A model generated the notes under the pieces. It worked only from the letters and a program-made list of their open reading frames with translations, was not told the DNA's origin and did no database searches. Made by a program: the position numbers and the translations under genes. A stretch of 64,000 nucleotides of DNA from Escherichia phage vB_VIPECOMC06: the sequence record PQ416618.1; one strand, written 5' to 3'. Position 1 is the stretch's first letter; every line of letters starts with the position of its first letter. Positions 1-38,773 of the stretch are shown here, one piece after another.

Positions 1-1
1 T

Positions 2-256
2 CCTGTAATTATTGCACAAATTGGCAAAACTCAAAAATGGTTTTATACTGTAGCTGAGTATGAAGAAGCTAAAGATACACTGCCTAAGCATAGTATTCGA
101 TACATCAAGGGATTGGGCTCCCTTGAAAAGTCAGAATATCGTGAAATGATTCAGAACCCTGTGTACGACGTAGTTAAACTTCCTGAAAATTGGAAAGAAC
201 TCTTTGAAATGTTGTTGGGTGATGATTCAGAACTTCGTAAAGAATGGATGTCCTAA
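2..256 (+). CDS. 39: DNA topoisomerase II large subunit, C-terminal end (5' truncated by window edge)
   Basis: Open frame from window start ending ...IRYIKGLGSLEKSEYREMIQNPVYDVVKLPENWKELFEML..KEWMS*, matching the C-terminus of the T4 topo II large subunit (gp39/gp60) as I recall it. Confidence 0.85.
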   Translation, partial: PVIIAQIGKTQKWFYTVAEYEEAKDTLPKHSIRYIKGLGSLEKSEYREMIQNPVYDVVKLPENWKELFEMLLGDDSELRKEWMS

Positions 257-298
257 GCTCCTTCTGGAGCTTCATTTTAATTTTAATAAGGCTTAATT

Positions 299-1399
299 AT
301 GAAAGTTATGTTTATCCCATCTCGTGCAGTCCCATTTAATCCTGACCGTGTACAAGGTGGTCTTGAAGCAGTACATTTAAATGTGTTGAAATATCTTGTG
401 TCCATCGGTGCTGATATTGATTATATCGGCTTTGATAATGACACGTTTGGTGACTGGAAAGTTACACACCATCCTGTTGGTCATCTGACTAAATTTAGCC
501 TAGGTATGAGTTATACTATGGCTCGTAAGATTGTTGAACTAGCCGGCATTCATGAATACGATTTTGTTGTTACTATGGAACCGACTAAACTAACCGTTCA
601 GGCAATTAAAGACGCAGGTCTCTCTAAAGTTCATAAGAATTTTATGGCAACACCATTTGAACCGGTATCTCGTGGCATTGTTCAAATTTGGGACCAGACT
701 ATTCAAATTCATAAGAATGGCGGCAAGAGTTATGCTCCTACTAAAGCCTTCCGTGAATTTGAACGTAAATATTGTTATATGACTTCAGGTCTGACTGACA
801 AAATTGATTATGATTATTGGCGAGCAAATCCGTTGTTTGAAGCCGAAGATTATCCGGTTATTTGTTTGAATGAGAAACCTGAAGTTCTTCCGGCGACTGA
901 TCTGATTATTAGTGCACAACGTTATGACACTAAAATGCGTCGTACTGATGTTGCTCTTGAAGCGATTAAAGCACTAGGCGAAAATGGTGTAGGATACTGT
1001 CCTAGTAAATGGGCACCACCAGCTAAATATCCTGTTATTATTGATGCTCCACACAGTGAAATCATGGAACGTCTTAAAACAGCTAAAGCGCTTATTAATA
1101 CATGTCCTGACACAGGTACGGTAGAGAATAGTTCTATTGAAGCCATCTCTAAAGGTGTCCCTGTAATCCAGTTAGTTTTTAAGGATTATCCTCATGCGAC
1201 ATTCGAATACGACCCAGATACTGTGCGTGTAGAAATTGATTCCTCTACTCCTAAGAAAGAAGTAGTTGCGCTTTACACAAAAGCTGTATTAGAATTCACT
1301 GACACATACGAAGCTCGAGTTAAACGTGCTGAAGCAGTATGGAAGAAGTATAACCGAGATGCAGTTGTTGCGATGTGGGATAAAATCTTCACAGCGTAA
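299..1399 (+). CDS. GT-B fold glycosyltransferase (GT4-like); candidate DNA sugar-modification enzyme
   Basis: 366 aa; N-terminal MKVMFIPS...GGLEAVHLNVLKYLVSIGADIDYIGF and C-terminal ENSSIEAISKGVPVIQ resemble GT4 donor/acceptor-binding motifs; AT-rich phage-like codon usage; sits between gene 39 and rIIA. Confidence 0.6.
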   Translation: MKVMFIPSRAVPFNPDRVQGGLEAVHLNVLKYLVSIGADIDYIGFDNDTFGDWKVTHHPVGHLTKFSLGMSYTMARKIVELAGIHEYDFVVTMEPTKLTVQAIKDAGLSKVHKNFMATPFEPVSRGIVQIWDQTIQIHKNGGKSYAPTKAFREFERKYCYMTSGLTDKIDYDYWRANPLFEAEDYPVICLNEKPEVLPATDLIISAQRYDTKMRRTDVALEAIKALGENGVGYCPSKWAPPAKYPVIIDAPHSEIMERLKTAKALINTCPDTGTVENSSIEAISKGVPVIQLVFKDYPHATFEYDPDTVRVEIDSSTPKKEVVALYTKAVLEFTDTYEARVKRAEAVWKKYNRDAVVAMWDKIFTA

Positions 1400-1410
1400 A
1401 TCCTGAATTG

Positions 1411-1471
1411 CCTGGGGCACTATTACACATAAGATGATAGATTATATGGTCTTTAGTAATAGTGCCCTAGG
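1411..1471 (+). other. long RNA hairpin (16-bp stem, 29-nt loop) between the glycosyltransferase gene and rIIA.1
   Basis: CCTGGGGCACTATTAC (1411-1426) pairs with GTAATAGTGCCCTAGG (1456-1471), with one G-U pair. Confidence 0.6.
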
Positions 1472-1491
1472 AATCTACTGAAGAGAATATT

Positions 1492-1692
1492 ATGAGAACA
1501 TATAACGTGGACTTGGAACTTTTTGATAAAGCAGTGCTCCGGGAATTCCGGCTTATCCAAAGATTTTTTGATATCGAGTCAGCAGAGTTCTTTAAAGAAC
1601 GCTTTAAAGAAATTCGATATAAAATACAAACCGATACAGCTACTAAAGAAGAACTTCTTGAAGTAGCAGAAATTTTTAAACGTAACTTGTGA
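1492..1692 (+). CDS. small early protein (rIIA.1-like by position)
   Basis: 66-aa ORF directly upstream of rIIA with a purine-rich region upstream of the ATG. Confidence 0.5.
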   Translation: MRTYNVDLELFDKAVLREFRLIQRFFDIESAEFFKERFKEIRYKIQTDTATKEELLEVAEIFKRNL

Positions 1693-1704
1693 TGAGAGAA
1701 AAAT

Positions 1705-3918
1705 ATGATTATTGAAACGGCTAAAGAAACGATTATTGGTTCAGGTGGTAAGAGCACAGCATTTACTATTCAAGGCAATAGCAAAGTTTATAAGATTTTG
1801 TCTAATGACCTTTATACAAACAAAGAATTGGCTTGTGTACGTGAATTAATCACAAACTGTATCGATGGTCAAATTCTTAATGGTTGCACTGATAAGTTTA
1901 TTGTTCAGGCTCCAGGTCGTTTAGACCCACGTTTTGTAGTTCGAGACTTTGGTCCTGGTATGAGTGATTTCACCATTCGAGGTAATGACGAAGAGCCAGG
2001 AATCTATAACTCATATTTTGCTTCAACTAAAACATCGAGTAACGATTTCATTGGTGGATTCGGACTCGGCTCTAAAGCTCCACTAGCATATACCGATACG
2101 TTTAACCTTACGTCTTATCACAATGGTGAAGTTCGTGGTTATGTAATTTATCAAGATGACACAGGTCCACAGATTAAGCCAACCTTCGTAGATAAGATGG
2201 GTCCTGATGATCGGACCGGCGTTGAAGTAGTTGTGCCTGTTAACCCAGAAGATTTTGAAAAGTTCGCATCTGAAATTGCATATGTTATGCGTCCTCTCGG
2301 TGATATTGCAGAAGTTCGTGGTGTTAAAGATATCAAATACTTCCCGGAATTCGATGATGTTTATTTAGCCAAGGAAGCTCCATGGGGTGAACGTGGTAAT
2401 ATCATGGCTGTTTATGGTGGTATTGTATATCCAATCGGAAGTGTTATTAAAGAACAAACATGGATGATGACGCGATGCACTACAGCTTATATTAAATTCC
2501 CTATGGGTGAACTAGATGTAGCCCCGTCTCGTGAAGCATTGTCATTTGATAAACGTACAGTAGCAAATATCCATAAACGCGTTGCAGAAATCGATGCTAA
2601 ATTGTTCGCTGAAGATTCTAAGAAATGGATTGATTGTAAATACCCACGTCATGTGTTCCGTGAAATTGATTCTCTTGGCTATACCGCTCGCAAATACATG
2701 GAAAAGGCTGGGTCTAATATTGAATCACTGAAATACTCTAAAGAACAACTAACTTATTCCGAGTTGTACAAACGTTTTAAAATGGGACCTGAGTGGTGTA
2801 ATCTTGGCGTCGTATACGATATCGTTGAATCCCCTCGTCTTCGTCGTATTCGTGAAAGCGGTAGCTCAACGGCAACCATTTCAATTAACAGTCTGATTGG
2901 CATTAACATTAAAAATGTTGAAATTGTTATTGACGACGTTAAGGGACGCGTTCCATTAATGCGAGCTCTTAATTCAATTGAAATGTCTAAAGACGAGGTT
3001 AAATTAACCGGTAAAGTTCCACGCGGTTTTGGTAAAAGCGTACTATTCGTTGACCCTACAGACGAAGATGCAATGAAACTTCTGGAACGCCTTAAAGTTA
3101 TCTTTGATGGCGACAACATTAACATGTACAAGACTTCAGAGCTTTTACAAATCGTTAAGCCATGGATTGAAGTCAAGAAACGGACTAATGAGCCTCGTCC
3201 TAAATCCCCGAGTGCTCATCGATTCTTTAAGAATGAAAACGATGTTTGGGTATCAGAAGACCTCTTTATTCCGGCAAGTGAAGCAGATGAAATCCAAGGT
3301 TATGCTATAGTTCGTAATCGTTCTAATGCTGAATGTCTTGACGCAGATAAAGGTTGGTTGAACTATGACTCCAATTTCTTGACTCGTATTGCTGATTTGT
3401 CAGGTATTAAAGAGTTCACTGTAGTCCGTCCACAGATTGCTAAGAAAGTTCGTAAACTTGGTGAAGTAGAATGCTTGTTCGAAAAATCAATTAATGACTA
3501 TATTACGCTAATTGATAAAGTGGATTATGATGAGTATGTATCACCAAGTCGTAGAGCACAGCCTTATTTGAATCATATTACTCGTAATGAAGAGCTTAAC
3601 TTCCTTAGTAAATATTTTAGCTCTAAGAACAAAGAAATCAGTAAAGATTTTGCAAAACTTTCAACAGTAAATAATCGTTGGGGTTGGAATCGATTCTCAG
3701 GTGCTACTAACAGAGATCTGAATAAGAAGTTAGAATTGTGTGCTAAAATTTTCGATAAGCTTAAAGATAATGCTTACGATAATGATGATAAAATGGTTAT
3801 TGAATTTGAAACCAATTATCATATTGTGTCAGAATACATGGGACGACGTGGTACTCTTTCTAAAGAACAGGTCGCTCAAATCGTTAAATTCATGAAGGCC
3901 GTGGAAGCGGCCAAATAA
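1705..3918 (+). CDS. rIIA: rIIA membrane-associated protein (rapid lysis / lysis inhibition; GHKL ATPase-like N-terminus)
   Basis: 737 aa; N-terminus MIIETAKETIIGSGGKSTAF...RELITNCIDGQ matches the T4 rIIA pattern. Confidence 0.9.
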   Translation: MIIETAKETIIGSGGKSTAFTIQGNSKVYKILSNDLYTNKELACVRELITNCIDGQILNGCTDKFIVQAPGRLDPRFVVRDFGPGMSDFTIRGNDEEPGIYNSYFASTKTSSNDFIGGFGLGSKAPLAYTDTFNLTSYHNGEVRGYVIYQDDTGPQIKPTFVDKMGPDDRTGVEVVVPVNPEDFEKFASEIAYVMRPLGDIAEVRGVKDIKYFPEFDDVYLAKEAPWGERGNIMAVYGGIVYPIGSVIKEQTWMMTRCTTAYIKFPMGELDVAPSREALSFDKRTVANIHKRVAEIDAKLFAEDSKKWIDCKYPRHVFREIDSLGYTARKYMEKAGSNIESLKYSKEQLTYSELYKRFKMGPEWCNLGVVYDIVESPRLRRIRESGSSTATISINSLIGINIKNVEIVIDDVKGRVPLMRALNSIEMSKDEVKLTGKVPRGFGKSVLFVDPTDEDAMKLLERLKVIFDGDNINMYKTSELLQIVKPWIEVKKRTNEPRPKSPSAHRFFKNENDVWVSEDLFIPASEADEIQGYAIVRNRSNAECLDADKGWLNYDSNFLTRIADLSGIKEFTVVRPQIAKKVRKLGEVECLFEKSINDYITLIDKVDYDEYVSPSRRAQPYLNHITRNEELNFLSKYFSSKNKEISKDFAKLSTVNNRWGWNRFSGATNRDLNKKLELCAKIFDKLKDNAYDNDDKMVIEFETNYHIVSEYMGRRGTLSKEQVAQIVKFMKAVEAAK

Positions 3919-4904: not shown

Positions 4905-5192
4905 ATGATTCATCCATTTGACGTATCAGAATCCAAAATTGCTAATCTTCGTGGTCATCATAAGTGTAAATCAGTTTATTGTGCTAAATTGGTAAAACAT
5001 CCTGGTGATGCACACTACGGCTGGTTAGAATGCGACGAAGTTGTTATTGAAATTCCGCCTGTAGATGCAGAATATCTTGAAGAAGGTGACCGCATTTATT
5101 TTGGCGAACTACACATTAGAGGTATCTATGGTAAAGACGAACTTGGGACTGTTGAGACTGAAGAATCTTCCGACATTTATCCTGTCGAATGA
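4905..5192 (+). CDS. hypothetical protein (overlaps the denB start in another frame)
   Basis: 95-aa ORF with AGGGG Shine-Dalgarno 6 nt upstream; follows the rIIB terminator. Confidence 0.45.
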   Translation: MIHPFDVSESKIANLRGHHKCKSVYCAKLVKHPGDAHYGWLECDEVVIEIPPVDAEYLEEGDRIYFGELHIRGIYGKDELGTVETEESSDIYPVE

Positions 5193-5685
5193 GTTTTTGA
5201 CTAGTGAAATGAAGGTGAAGATTGCTGACACTGCTCGGTATTCCCTGAGCCAAAATCCTGGCCAAAACAAAGAAGATGTAGTTCGACGTTGTAAGGTTGC
5301 GGTCTTTGCAGAGTATGTAGTAGCAAATTGGCTAGACGGGTATGTTAATAAAGGTATTGAAGACGTAGAAGACCCGTACACGTATGCATGGGACGTGTTA
5401 GCCCATCCCAAGTATTGTGGAATTCGTGTAGAAGTCAAGACGCACCAGATAGATTCTAAATGGATTTCGGTTACCACAGGATACAGTGGTGATTATCCGG
5501 GTGGTAATGGAATCAATATAGGGCCCTTCTTGAACCATCGAGTCGCAGATTGCATTATTATATTAGATGTCAAAGAAACCTCACCTGACGTCTTCTCTTA
5601 TTCTATAAAGTTCGTGGGAGACCATGAAGACCTAAAGAAAATCGTCCGCAAGAGCAACTACAACGGGTGGTATCTTCAACTTTAA
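5128..5685 (+). CDS. denB: endonuclease IV (dC-specific ssDNA endonuclease), DenB-like
   Basis: ATG at 5128 with AGAGG SD gives 185 aa (T4 DenB length from memory) and places a Ser at residue 176, the residue reported as critical in T4 EndoIV; position downstream of rIIB fits. Confidence 0.5.
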   Translation: MVKTNLGLLRLKNLPTFILSNEFLTSEMKVKIADTARYSLSQNPGQNKEDVVRRCKVAVFAEYVVANWLDGYVNKGIEDVEDPYTYAWDVLAHPKYCGIRVEVKTHQIDSKWISVTTGYSGDYPGGNGINIGPFLNHRVADCIIILDVKETSPDVFSYSIKFVGDHEDLKKIVRKSNYNGWYLQL

Positions 5686-31832: not shown

Positions 31833-32243
31833 ATGAAAGATATTGCCGCCGAATATTCCTTTATTAAATATACAGAATTGGAGCTATTAGAAGATGCAAC
31901 AATTAAAACAGTTGATGTCCCTAATAAGAAAAATGTCATATACGCTATTGCTATAGATGACGAACTTGTGTATATTGGTAAAACCAAGAATTTAAAGAAA
32001 CGCATTAACTATTATCGAACAGCCATAAATCGAAAAGACCAGACTTCAGATTCAAGAAAATCTCTTATGATTTTGGATGCCTTAATGCAAGGCAAAAAGG
32101 TTGAATTCTGGGCCCGCCAATGTTTTGACCTTTCAGTCACCAACGAACTTGGTTCAATGACCATCGCAACAATGGACCTTGAAGAACCGCTTTTTATCAA
32201 AAAGTTCAACCCGCCTTGGAATATCCAACATAAGAAAAAGTAG
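31833..32243 (+). CDS. denA: endonuclease II (GIY-YIG family)
   Basis: 136 aa; MK.IA.EYSFIKYTELEL...NVIYAIAI.DELVYIGKTKNL.KRINYYRTAINRKD...PPWNIQHKKK matches T4 DenA. Confidence 0.92.
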   Translation: MKDIAAEYSFIKYTELELLEDATIKTVDVPNKKNVIYAIAIDDELVYIGKTKNLKKRINYYRTAINRKDQTSDSRKSLMILDALMQGKKVEFWARQCFDLSVTNELGSMTIATMDLEEPLFIKKFNPPWNIQHKKK

Positions 32244-32290: not shown

Positions 32291-33424
<1,134 letters not shown>

Positions 33425-33426
33425 TG

Positions 33427-33456
33427 GTTTACAAACACCACGGAAGGTGTTACTAT
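33427..33456 (+). promoter_or_regulatory. early promoter upstream of alc
   Basis: GTTTACaaacaccacggaaggtgtTACTAT. Confidence 0.55.
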
Positions 33457-33486
33457 GGCTTTTATCAACAACACGAGGAGAAAATT

Positions 33487-33987
33487 ATGAATATGCAATT
33501 GATTACTAACGATATGGTTGTGGCAGCATTTGGTGATTCTACAGACGGAATCCGAGTCTTTAAGAAAGGACGTCCAGTTGGTTATCTTACTGACCTACGT
33601 GTTACACTGGCCAAAAATGCTAAAAAGAAGTTAAAGCAAAAAGAATATTCAACACGTTACACCGAAGAGAAACGTGAAGCGATGCCAGAAGCAGTTAATG
33701 CCATGGTAGAATTTCTTCAAAACAATTTGACTAAATATGACGCTAATGTGTTCATTAATATTAGTCAACCAAATGTACATATCGCAGGTATAAAATTCTA
33801 CATTATTTGCGACCCTCTTACCGACAAATTCAACCGCCTCGGAATTTCAAGTCCATATCATACAGCAGAAGAGTTGTGTGTATTGTTTGAATCGTACAAA
33901 ATCCAGTGCGATGGTCCGAAAACCGTTCTTATCAATGGATTATCCCGAGATGAAATCATTGAGATTATTAAAACATGCTTAAAGTAA
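33487..33987 (+). CDS. alc: Alc (blocks host transcription on dC-DNA)
   Basis: ATG at 33487 with GAGGAGAAAA SD; MNMQLITNDM.VAAFGDST.GIRVFKKGR.VGYL.DLRV.LAKN.KKKLK matches T4 Alc; the upstream part of the track ORF contains an early promoter, so the shorter start is used. Confidence 0.85.
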   Translation: MNMQLITNDMVVAAFGDSTDGIRVFKKGRPVGYLTDLRVTLAKNAKKKLKQKEYSTRYTEEKREAMPEAVNAMVEFLQNNLTKYDANVFINISQPNVHIAGIKFYIICDPLTDKFNRLGISSPYHTAEELCVLFESYKIQCDGPKTVLINGLSRDEIIEIIKTCLK

Positions 33988-37199: not shown

Positions 37200-38192
37200 A
37201 TGTTACCTGTCATCAGAAAACTTATTTCTCCAAAAGAACTGGCTGAGATTATTCCTTTGTCGGAAGCTTACGCATCACAAGTGGCTTCTCATCGCGAACA
37301 AGTTAATTCGATTATGAACGGTGAAGACCCACGCAAACTTATTGTTGTAGGTCCTTGTTCAATTCATGACCCTATTGCTGCTGTTGAATACGGCAAACGT
37401 CTGGCTGAACTTCAAACTCGTCTTCCTAATGTTCTGTTAGTGATGCGCGTTTATTTTGAAAAGCCTCGAACTACCGTAGGTTGGAAAGGTCTTGTAAATG
37501 ATCCATATCTTGACGGAAGTTTTGATATGAACCACGGTCTTATAGTTGCACGAACATTGTGTCGTAAACTTCTACGCATGGGACTTCCATTAGCAACTGA
37601 AGTATTAGACCCATTCACGATTAAGTATCTTTCTGGTATTTTCTCATGGGTTGCTATTGGCGCCCGTACGACTGAAAGTCAGACACATCGTGAAATTGCT
37701 TCAGGTCTACCGATGTGCGTAGGCTTCAAGAACGCAACCAATGGTTCTATTAAAGTAGCTACAGACGCGATGTATAGTGCCGCCTGGCCTCATCGGTATA
37801 TGGGTATGGACGTCGATGGTACTGTAGGCATTGTTGAAGCTGAAGGTAATCAGAATACGCATATCGTATTGCGTGGCGGGACTAACGGCCCGAACTATCA
37901 TTCTTCTGATATTCAAGAAGCTTCTAACAAAGCAAGTGCATTAGGTCTGAATCATTATGTAATGGTTGACTGTAGCCATGCAAACGCTGATGGGTATTAT
38001 AGCAATCAAATTGGTATTGGTAAAAATTTAGCAGCTAATGATTTGGTCAAAGGAATTATGATAGAATCATTCCTACATGAAGGAAATCAAAAAATTTCTG
38101 ATAATATGTCCTATGGCGTTTCCGTTACCGATGCGTGCATCAGTTGGGAACAAACTAAAGAGCTGTTAACTTATATTAATAAGGTTCAATAA
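37200..38192 (+). CDS. class I DAHP synthase homologue (3-deoxy-D-arabino-heptulosonate-7-phosphate synthase, AroG/AroF-like)
   Basis: 330 aa; conserved blocks VVGPCSIHD, VMRVYFEKPRTTVGWKGL, AIGARTTESQTHRE, VDCSHANA, MIESFLHEGNQ, VSVTDACISWEQT align with E. coli AroG active-site motifs; AAGGA SD. Confidence 0.85.
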   Translation: MLPVIRKLISPKELAEIIPLSEAYASQVASHREQVNSIMNGEDPRKLIVVGPCSIHDPIAAVEYGKRLAELQTRLPNVLLVMRVYFEKPRTTVGWKGLVNDPYLDGSFDMNHGLIVARTLCRKLLRMGLPLATEVLDPFTIKYLSGIFSWVAIGARTTESQTHREIASGLPMCVGFKNATNGSIKVATDAMYSAAWPHRYMGMDVDGTVGIVEAEGNQNTHIVLRGGTNGPNYHSSDIQEASNKASALGLNHYVMVDCSHANADGYYSNQIGIGKNLAANDLVKGIMIESFLHEGNQKISDNMSYGVSVTDACISWEQTKELLTYINKVQ

Positions 38193-38773
38193 TGAAAGCT
38201 AGCACATATCTTCAAATTGCTTATTTGATTTCTCAAGAATCAAAATGTTGTTCATGGAAAGTTGGTGCCGTCATTGAAAAAGATGGACGCATTATCTCTA
38301 CTGGATATAATGGCTCACCAGCAGGTGGCGTTAACTGTTGTGAACATGCATCCGAAAATGGTTGGTTGAAGAATAAACCAAGCCCGGTCATCGTTGCTGG
38401 ACATAAAGAAGGCACTACGGCATTTGGACGGGCAGATAATTTTGTTTTGGCTAAAGAACATCGGGCCGCTCATAGTGCATGGTCTGCTAATAATGAAATC
38501 CATGCGGAATTGAACGCAATTTTGTTTGCAGCTCGTAAAGGTAATTCTATTGAAGGTGCTACGTTATATACGACGCTTTCTCCGTGTCCTGATTGCACTA
38601 AAGCTATTACGCAGTCAGGTATTAAAAAGGTTGTATACGCAGAATTATATGACAGATCTCCTGAAAATTGGGCAGACATTCTAAAACAAGCCGGTATTGA
38701 AGTAATTCAGTACTCTCGTAATAATCTTCGTTCTCTGAATTGGGAACAAATCCGAAACTTTTGTGGTGAATAA
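38192..38773 (+). CDS. cd: dCMP deaminase
   Basis: 193 aa; MKAST.LQIAYL.SQESKCCSWKVGAVIEK.GRIISTGYNGSPAGGVNCC...HAELNAILFAAR.G.SIEGAT.Y.TLSPCPDC.KAI matches T4 Cd. Confidence 0.95.
   Translation: MKASTYLQIAYLISQESKCCSWKVGAVIEKDGRIISTGYNGSPAGGVNCCEHASENGWLKNKPSPVIVAGHKEGTTAFGRADNFVLAKEHRAAHSAWSANNEIHAELNAILFAARKGNSIEGATLYTTLSPCPDCTKAITQSGIKKVVYAELYDRSPENWADILKQAGIEVIQYSRNNLRSLNWEQIRNFCGE

Follow-up and report, generated by a model that had tools for sequence, protein, structure and literature searches.

The putative glycosyltransferase gene occupies positions 299..1399 (+) of the window, a stretch of 64,000 nucleotides from Escherichia phage vB_VIPECOMC06 (PQ416618.1), where it begins with an ATG and encodes 366 amino acids followed by a stop codon, as read from the ORF table and the sequence. 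A Shine-Dalgarno-like TAAGG (287..291, +), read directly from the sequence, lies 7 nt 5' of the ATG. The window opens inside gene 39, for the large subunit of topoisomerase II; the 3' end of gene 39 (stop at 254-256) is the 5' neighbor of the transferase gene, while rIIA.1 (1492..1692), rIIA (1705..3918), and rIIB follow on the 3' side. The order gene 39, transferase, rIIA.1, rIIA is common to the window, HX01, and RB69. An initial annotation of this DNA had placed a 366-residue ORF between gene 39 and rIIA and had remarked that the T4 locus holds only small ORFs; both statements hold, the T4 interval from gene 39 to rIIA containing only rIIA.1, gene 60, 60.1, and a mobA remnant.

A terminator-like hairpin (255..272, +) overlaps the gene 39 stop codon, directly 5' of the transferase gene. 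It can be called only terminator-like, because such sites, like promoter-like ones, are no more numerous in this region than chance would give. A promoter scan revealed no sigma-70-like promoter between this hairpin and the ATG at 299, so transcripts that start farther upstream probably cover the transferase gene. An Rfam search of positions 1..2000 gave no match.

The 5' 4 kb of the window shares 97-98% identity with numerous genomes of Mosigvirus (RB69-like) phages, and the window as a whole represents the rIIA-to-baseplate side of the genome, without the gene 43/gene 42 region, where the arabinose cluster or T4-type glucosyltransferase genes would be looked for. Among genes typical of phages with modified cytosine, the initial annotation had listed alc, denB, denA, and cd. 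Three of these are present: alc (33424..33987; PF17527), cd (38192..38773), and denB (5065..5685), the last as annotated in HX01, where the locus is near-identical. For the fourth, the denA position (31833..32243) holds a GIY-YIG endonuclease, whose HX01 counterpart is annotated only as 'endonuclease'. The arabinose-pathway genes, the 5hodCMP synthase, and the dCTPase would lie outside the window, and the arabinose pathway of vB_VIPECOMC06 is presumed from its relatives.

Family and fold of the encoded protein

The ORF at 299..1399 is a real gene and not a chance reading frame, judging by its full-length match to PHROG 8302, its 43% identity to Acinetobacter phage proteins, and its 99% identity to a crystallized protein. 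PHROG 8302 ('unknown function') was matched end to end (1-366/366, E 1e-222). Orthologs in phages HX01, pEK20, and F2 are 100% identical to the window ORF, and RB69p003 (RB69 ORF003c or gp3, NP_861693.1), which is likewise 366 amino acids in length and encoded between gene 39 and rIIA.1, is identical at 363 of 366 positions. The three differences (T56N, V231A, T327I) all fall outside the family-invariant columns. The presence of a glycosyltransferase ORF at this position in RB69-type phages, which the initial annotation had mentioned, is thereby borne out. The protein of PDB entries 9IQZ and 9IR0 is 99% identical to the window ORF over its full length, with the substitutions Y160H, G164A, and S315F. 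By sequence, the window ORF is a member of the Mosigvirus gp3 orthologous group, which comprises RB69 ORF003c, the HY126 glycosyltransferase, and PHROG 8302.

More distant members of the same family are DLP3 gp77 and gp76 (XEO41443.1, XEO41444.1), which are 43% and 41% identical to the window ORF end to end and conserve all of the motif residues, and their DLP1 equivalents (E 4e-109, with 43% identity over the full length, and E 3e-98, respectively). The family is very small: among 1.84 billion cluster representatives, a profile search retrieved just 11 relatives, and a six-member profile run against all PDB sequences retrieved the ortholog alone. The window ORF itself had no match in Pfam at E<=10, NCBIfam, or PADLOC, and in distant relatives the Pfam scans yielded no more than sub-threshold resemblance to GT4 profiles. 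In many records the ortholog is currently called 'hypothetical protein', 'DNA alpha-glucosyltransferase' (HX01 RefSeq and several Acinetobacter phage records), or 'phosphatidylinositol mannosyltransferase' (phage 308Ecol101PP). The latter two names are misleading fold-level transfers.

The sequence motifs quoted in the initial annotation are all found in the ORF: MKVMFIPS at residues 1-8, GGLE at residues 20-23, and ENSSIEAISKGVPVI at residues 276-290. Family alignments identify codons G20-G21-L22-E23 (356..367, +) as a glycine-rich N-terminal loop and the codons for residues 276-290 (1124..1168, +) as a donor-binding-type motif of the C-terminal Rossmann domain. In one respect the motif had been misread, as the alignment places the acidic pair, E276 and E281, at a spacing of E-x4-E and not at the canonical GT4 spacing of E-x7-E. 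Residues that are invariant throughout the family, down to 35% identity, include G20, G21, L22, R208, R214, E276, E281, and G286-x-P288-V289; within the C-terminal motif, they are E276, S279, E281, A282, I283, G286, P288, and V289. By position, they would correspond to the glycine loop, the basic residues that bind phosphate, and the acidic residues that bind the donor in GT4 enzymes.

The two crystal structures, released on 2025-07-16, are described as 'phage HY126 glycosyltransferase' (9IQZ, the apo form) and the same protein 'with UDP' (9IR0), and their source is probably the study of phage HY126 by He et al. (2026, Nat Chem Biol, doi 10.1038/s41589-026-02150-z). The 99% identity to this solved protein argues that the window ORF shares the fold and the UDP-binding site of the HY126 enzyme, and binding of a nucleotide-sugar donor would be expected from its identity to the UDP complex. 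An AlphaFold model of the window ORF had a mean pLDDT of 58.7, with residues 116-187 below 50, because a family with only 11 relatives allows no deeper alignment to be built; the model was used solely to ask which solved structures resemble the ORF. Foldseek searches with this low-confidence model retrieved 9IQZ/9IR0 at a TM score of 0.72 among 268 matches at E<=0.001, of which the top ones besides the ortholog were GT-B enzymes. The next matches were GT4-type GT-B enzymes (BshA, PimA, MshA, and others), with E values of 1e-8 to 1e-7 and 11-14% identity. HHpred analysis of RB69 ORF003c had earlier matched GT-B structures with E values of 1e-24 to 1e-27 (Thomas et al., 2018, PMC6024577 Table 3).

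The window ORF thus has a GT-B fold, with two Rossmann-like domains and a cleft between them, and the initial assignment to the GT-B glycosyltransferases stands. Its relationship to GT4 appears to be one of fold, as the sequence criteria for CAZy family GT4 (Pfam Glycos_transf_1) are another matter: neither a Glycos_transf_1 or Glyco_trans_1_4 profile match nor an E-x7-E motif was found in the window ORF.

Arabinosylated DNA and the distribution of the gene family

Analysis of RB69 DNA revealed arabinose, not glucose, and ORF003c was proposed as the arabinosyltransferase (Thomas et al., 2018, PMC6024577). Tandem mass spectrometry and NMR subsequently identified the modified base as 5-hydroxycytosine (5hoC), not hydroxymethylcytosine (hmC) (Lee et al., 2026, PMC13326640). 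The arabinose is ether-linked straight to C5 of 5hoC, and the earlier ara-hmC assignment has been called erroneous (PMC13326640, PMC13390438). RB69 DNA contains a mono-arabinosylated nucleoside, alpha-D-Araf-5hodC, along with a di-arabinosylated form established by NMR, beta-D-Araf-3-alpha-D-Araf-5hodC (PMC13326640), and the same two nucleosides occur in Mosigvirus phage NP (PMC13390438). These findings agree with the initial proposal that the window ORF is a non-glucosyl DNA sugar transferase, in that its ortholog belongs to a lineage with arabinose and not glucose (PMC6024577, PMC13326640, PMC13390438), and contradict the proposal of hmC as its acceptor.

The precursor 5hodCMP is made by a flavin-dependent thymidylate-synthase homolog, and UDP-arabinose by a phage gene cluster adjoining the DNA polymerase gene (PMC13326640). 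In that study, RB69 gp46:47 was named arabinosyltransferase 1 and RB69p003 'beta-arabinosyltransferase 2', both as proposals, neither being marked as experimentally confirmed. DLP3 gp76 and gp77 together added a third arabinose onto RB69 DNA from UDP-Araf in vitro, either protein singly was inactive, and 5hoC DNA gave no activity. Reported chain lengths are one for Thanatos, two for RB69, and three for DLP3, and Thanatos is stated to encode a single arabinosyltransferase, of the gp46:47 type (PMC13326640). Many restriction enzymes are blocked by arabinosylated 5-hydroxycytosine (PMC13326640), and according to citing papers, DNA arabinosylation protects from CRISPR-Cas and from a DNA glycosylase. 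Mahler et al. (2025), as cited in PMC13216743, named the arabinosyltransferases 'Aat' and found that Aat deletion in Bas46 led to sensitivity to a defense system.

The distribution of the window ORF family differs from that of the proposed first transferase (HX01 gp146, equivalent to RB69 gp46:47). By tblastn, the window ORF family was found in 211 phage records, consisting of Mosigvirus-type phages, Acinetobacter phages, and one Tegunavirus record, with no match in Klebsiella, Serratia, Enterobacter, or Proteus phages and none in a Shewanella record. The first transferase was found in 348 phage records, including phages of Klebsiella, Serratia, Enterobacter, Proteus, Yersinia, and Kosakonia; Serratia phage 92A1, for example, carries the core cluster with a single transferase. 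Among Mosigvirus-type records, ~155 contain the window ORF family and ~153 contain the first transferase at >=95% identity. These patterns suggest that the window ORF family is a narrow accessory to a universal arabinosylation core.

The arabinosylation cluster, comprising the 5hodCMP synthase, the first transferase, and the UDP-arabinose genes, is present in RB69, HX01, DLP1, and DLP3. In the Acinetobacter phages its order is A5P isomerase, kinase/pyrophosphorylase, HAD phosphatase, ThyA homolog, first transferase, Tmk-like gene, gp77, and gp76, so that both paralogs of the window ORF family in DLP1 and DLP3 lie within it. Mosigvirus phages have a single gene of the family, ~21 kb away from the cluster in RB69 and HX01; in RB69, the cluster is found 21-27 kb beyond the gene 39 end of the region equivalent to the window. 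The number of places matched per record was correspondingly one in Mosigvirus-type phages and two in each listed Acinetobacter phage. Copy numbers of zero, one, and two in Thanatos, RB69, and DLP3 (the zero being the statement of PMC13326640) parallel the reported chain lengths of one, two, and three.

Assignment of the transfer step

Most probably, the window ORF adds the second arabinose, in beta-(1->3) linkage, to alpha-D-Araf-5hoC in phage DNA, using a UDP-sugar as donor. The enzyme would be a soluble GT-B protein acting on phage DNA after replication, with UDP-D-arabinofuranose from the phage's own pathway as the most likely donor. It would join arabinofuranose beta-(1->3) to the alpha-D-arabinofuranose already present on 5-hydroxycytosine, the first, alpha-linked sugar having presumably been added by the unrelated transferase gp46:47, and would thereby convert mono-arabinosyl-5hoC to the di-arabinosyl form of RB69-type virions. 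By making the sugar coat bulkier, the second arabinose presumably broadens the protection of the DNA from restriction, CRISPR, and glycosylase defenses. We infer the second transfer by the window ortholog itself, its regio- and stereochemistry, and the first transfer by gp46:47.

Several lines of evidence point to the second step. The window ORF is orthologous and syntenic to RB69 gp3, which has been assigned this role; the 99%-identical HY126 protein has a GT-B fold and a UDP complex; DNA of RB69 and of Mosigvirus phage NP carries both the mono- and the di-arabinosylated nucleoside; the 43% and 41% identical homologs, DLP3 gp77 and gp76, together extend arabinosyl chains in vitro; in Acinetobacter phages, the arabinosylation cluster contains both paralogs in the vicinity of its 5hodCMP synthase, first transferase, and UDP-Ara genes; and the phyletic pattern is that of an accessory to the more widespread first transferase. 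The parallel between copy number and chain length offers circumstantial support. A picture of one enzyme for one step may nevertheless be too simple, as neither DLP3 homolog works without the other and the pair added only the third sugar.

Some observations sit uneasily with transfer of the second sugar. PimA, BshA, and MshA, the closest structural neighbors, are retaining GT4 enzymes acting on lipids or small molecules, yet the proposed product is beta-linked; the window ORF has neither the canonical E-x7-E motif nor a glycosyltransferase match in Pfam or NCBIfam; and the gp3 assignment in PMC13326640 is itself a proposal. If both transfers draw on a common UDP-D-Araf pool, as presumed, one of the two GT-B enzymes must retain configuration and the other invert it, since the first sugar is alpha-linked but the second beta-linked. 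An inverting window enzyme would be unusual, given that the nearest folds are retaining GT4 enzymes and that its acidic motif is shortened. It is conceivable that the enzyme acts only in certain sequence contexts, as virions hold a mixture of mono- and di-arabinosyl cytosines, and in that case a second patterned layer would be written onto the DNA. That the window enzyme is either such an inverting, mechanistically unusual variant of a GT4-like scaffold or context-limited in its action is put forward here only tentatively, as more doubtful than not.

The proposal of 2018 (PMC6024577), shared by the initial annotation, was that this protein is 'the' arabinosyltransferase, decorating the modified cytosine itself with its first sugar. 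It is a genuine GT-B enzyme to judge from the UDP complex of the 99%-identical protein, and the experiments of PMC13326640 fixed neither the enzyme of the first transfer nor its nucleotide or DNA stage. Nevertheless, a role in the first transfer is improbable. The window ORF family is missing in well over 100 phage records that have the 5hodCMP-synthase/arabinose cluster together with a gp46:47-type transferase, Thanatos, which carries one pentose, reportedly has an enzyme of the gp46:47 type and no other, and the DLP3 homologs act on already arabinosylated DNA while being inactive on 5hoC DNA (PMC13326640). The published model, which gives the first arabinose to gp46:47 and the second to gp3, agrees with the phyletic comparison in this respect.

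Action on an acceptor other than DNA, such as a host lipid, a lipopolysaccharide precursor, or a small molecule, for instance in superinfection exclusion, has a certain appeal in that the nearest folds beyond the ortholog are those of PimA, a lipid mannosyltransferase, and of BshA and MshA, which have small-molecule acceptors, and in that one GenBank record carries the mannosyltransferase name. This is very improbable, as likeness at 11-14% identity shows fold only, neither a signal peptide nor a membrane segment is evident on direct reading of the sequence, the only phage lineages from which the family is reported also have the DNA arabinosylation cluster (within which it lies in Acinetobacter phages), and the homologs modify DNA in vitro (PMC13326640). 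A DNA alpha-glucosyltransferase acting on hmC, as named in the HX01 and Acinetobacter phage records and compatible with the GT-B fold common to T4 a-gt and the ortholog (PMC6024577 Table 3), can be set aside as scarcely credible, since RB69 DNA contains arabinose in place of glucose (PMC6024577), its base is 5hoC and not hmC (PMC13326640, PMC13390438), and alignment of the family profile with T4 a-gt and b-gt by hhalign gave a probability of 0.2% each, a weak test with single-sequence templates and shallow profiles that nevertheless accords with the initial view of the T4 glucosyltransferases as unrelated in sequence.

Transfer of the second arabinose remains the preferred assignment. The idea of a non-glucosyl DNA sugar transferase encoded here is not new, having been published in 2018 and refined in 2025-2026, with a crystal structure of a near-identical copy. 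Its value for the window is one of correct annotation, placing the gene in the recently resolved arabinosylated 5-hydroxycytosine hypermodification pathway, and a better label for the ortholog would be putative DNA (arabinosyl-5-hydroxycytosine) beta-arabinofuranosyltransferase. The gene also marks the phage as a Mosigvirus, in which di-arabinosylated cytosine would be expected rather than glucosyl-hmC, an expectation that affects sequencing, cloning, restriction analysis, and the choice of therapy phages.

Comparison with known enzymes

DLP3 gp76 and gp77 jointly use UDP-Araf to modify arabinosylated 5hoC DNA (PMC13326640). These differ from the window ORF in being two paralogs within the cluster, both of which are needed for the third, beta-(1->5)-linked arabinose, whereas the Mosigvirus gene is single and distant from the cluster, in a lineage that stops at two sugars. 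The first transferase (RB69 gp46:47, HX01 gp146, DLP3 gp79) shares with the window ORF the pathway, the predicted donor, and a GT-B-like fold (PMC13326640 Table 1). It is shorter (~300 versus 366 amino acids), is found in more phage records (348 versus 211), and its gene always adjoins that of the 5hodCMP synthase; in the one pair compared, the window ORF and the DLP1 equivalent of DLP3 gp79 had no detectable sequence similarity.

PimA, BshA, and MshA resemble the window ORF in their two-Rossmann GT-B architecture and in a C-terminal E...E/G-x-PV donor motif. They differ in their acceptors, in sequence (11-14% identity), and in having the canonical E-x7-E in place of E-x4-E, and the window ORF, for its part, is without a Pfam Glycos_transf_1 match even at E<=10. 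Finally, T4 a-gt and b-gt resemble the proposed enzyme in being GT-B proteins that transfer a sugar from a UDP-sugar, after replication, to a hydroxyl on modified cytosine (PMC6024577). The T4 enzymes transfer glucose to the hydroxymethyl group of hmC and are encoded at another genomic position, whereas the window ORF would transfer arabinofuranose to the sugar already carried by 5hoC.

Homologues and database names of the proposed arabinosyltransferases

Apart from Mosigvirus-type and Acinetobacter phages, the only match to the transferase family in a tblastn survey of the phage collection was a single Tegunavirus record, whose homologue shares less than 60% identity. The record of Shigella phage JK45 (MK962757) is filed under Tequatrovirus, yet it contains a Mosigvirus-type transferase locus. 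This locus (L011 801-2404) carries a full-length transferase gene and, immediately after it, a second annotated ORF of 136 aa that duplicates the C-terminal part of the transferase; the extra ORF reflects either a tandem duplication of ~0.5 kb or an assembly artefact.

Both proposed arabinosyltransferases of phage HX01 carry misleading names in RefSeq. The identical orthologue of the transferase described here (L001 3298-4398) is named ‘DNA alpha-glucosyltransferase’, and gp146 (L007 8879-9778), the proposed first arabinosyltransferase and counterpart of RB69 gp46:47, is named ‘RNA polymerase binding protein’. In the RB69 annotation, the gp46:47 gene is given as two ORFs, a split that has been ascribed to sequencing error (PMC13326640).

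Hairpins flanking the transferase gene

Positions 1411-1471, in the spacer that separates the transferase gene from rIIA.1, form a strong hairpin whose outer stem comprises 16 bp. RNA folding gave a free energy of -35.1 kcal/mol and a z-score of -5.6 relative to shuffled sequences, and near-identical copies of the hairpin are present in RB69 and HX01. No U-tract lies 3' of the hairpin, and an Rfam search of positions 1-2000 returned no match. This element could function in transcript processing or stabilization. A second hairpin, at 255-272, resembles a terminator, with a T-rich tail after a stem of seven pairs. It overlaps the gene 39 stop codon just upstream of the transferase gene, in a region where such sites occur at a chance-level count.

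A DAHP synthase gene upstream of dCMP deaminase

Directly 5' of the dCMP deaminase gene lies a gene for an AroF/G/H-type 3-deoxy-7-phosphoheptulonate (DAHP) synthase (37200-38192, + strand; TIGR00034, E 6e-128; Pfam DAHP_synth_1, E 2e-74). T4 is not known to have a DAHP synthase gene at this position. One might speculate that the enzyme is tied to a phage re-routing of sugar-phosphate metabolism toward arabinose synthesis.

The gene 39-rIIA.1 interval in comparison with T4

From the portion compared (113-256), gene 39 appears to encode an unsplit topoisomerase large subunit, as in RB69. The interval lacks T4 gene 60, with its translational bypass, as well as 60.1 and the mobA remnant, and holds the transferase gene (299-1399) in their place.
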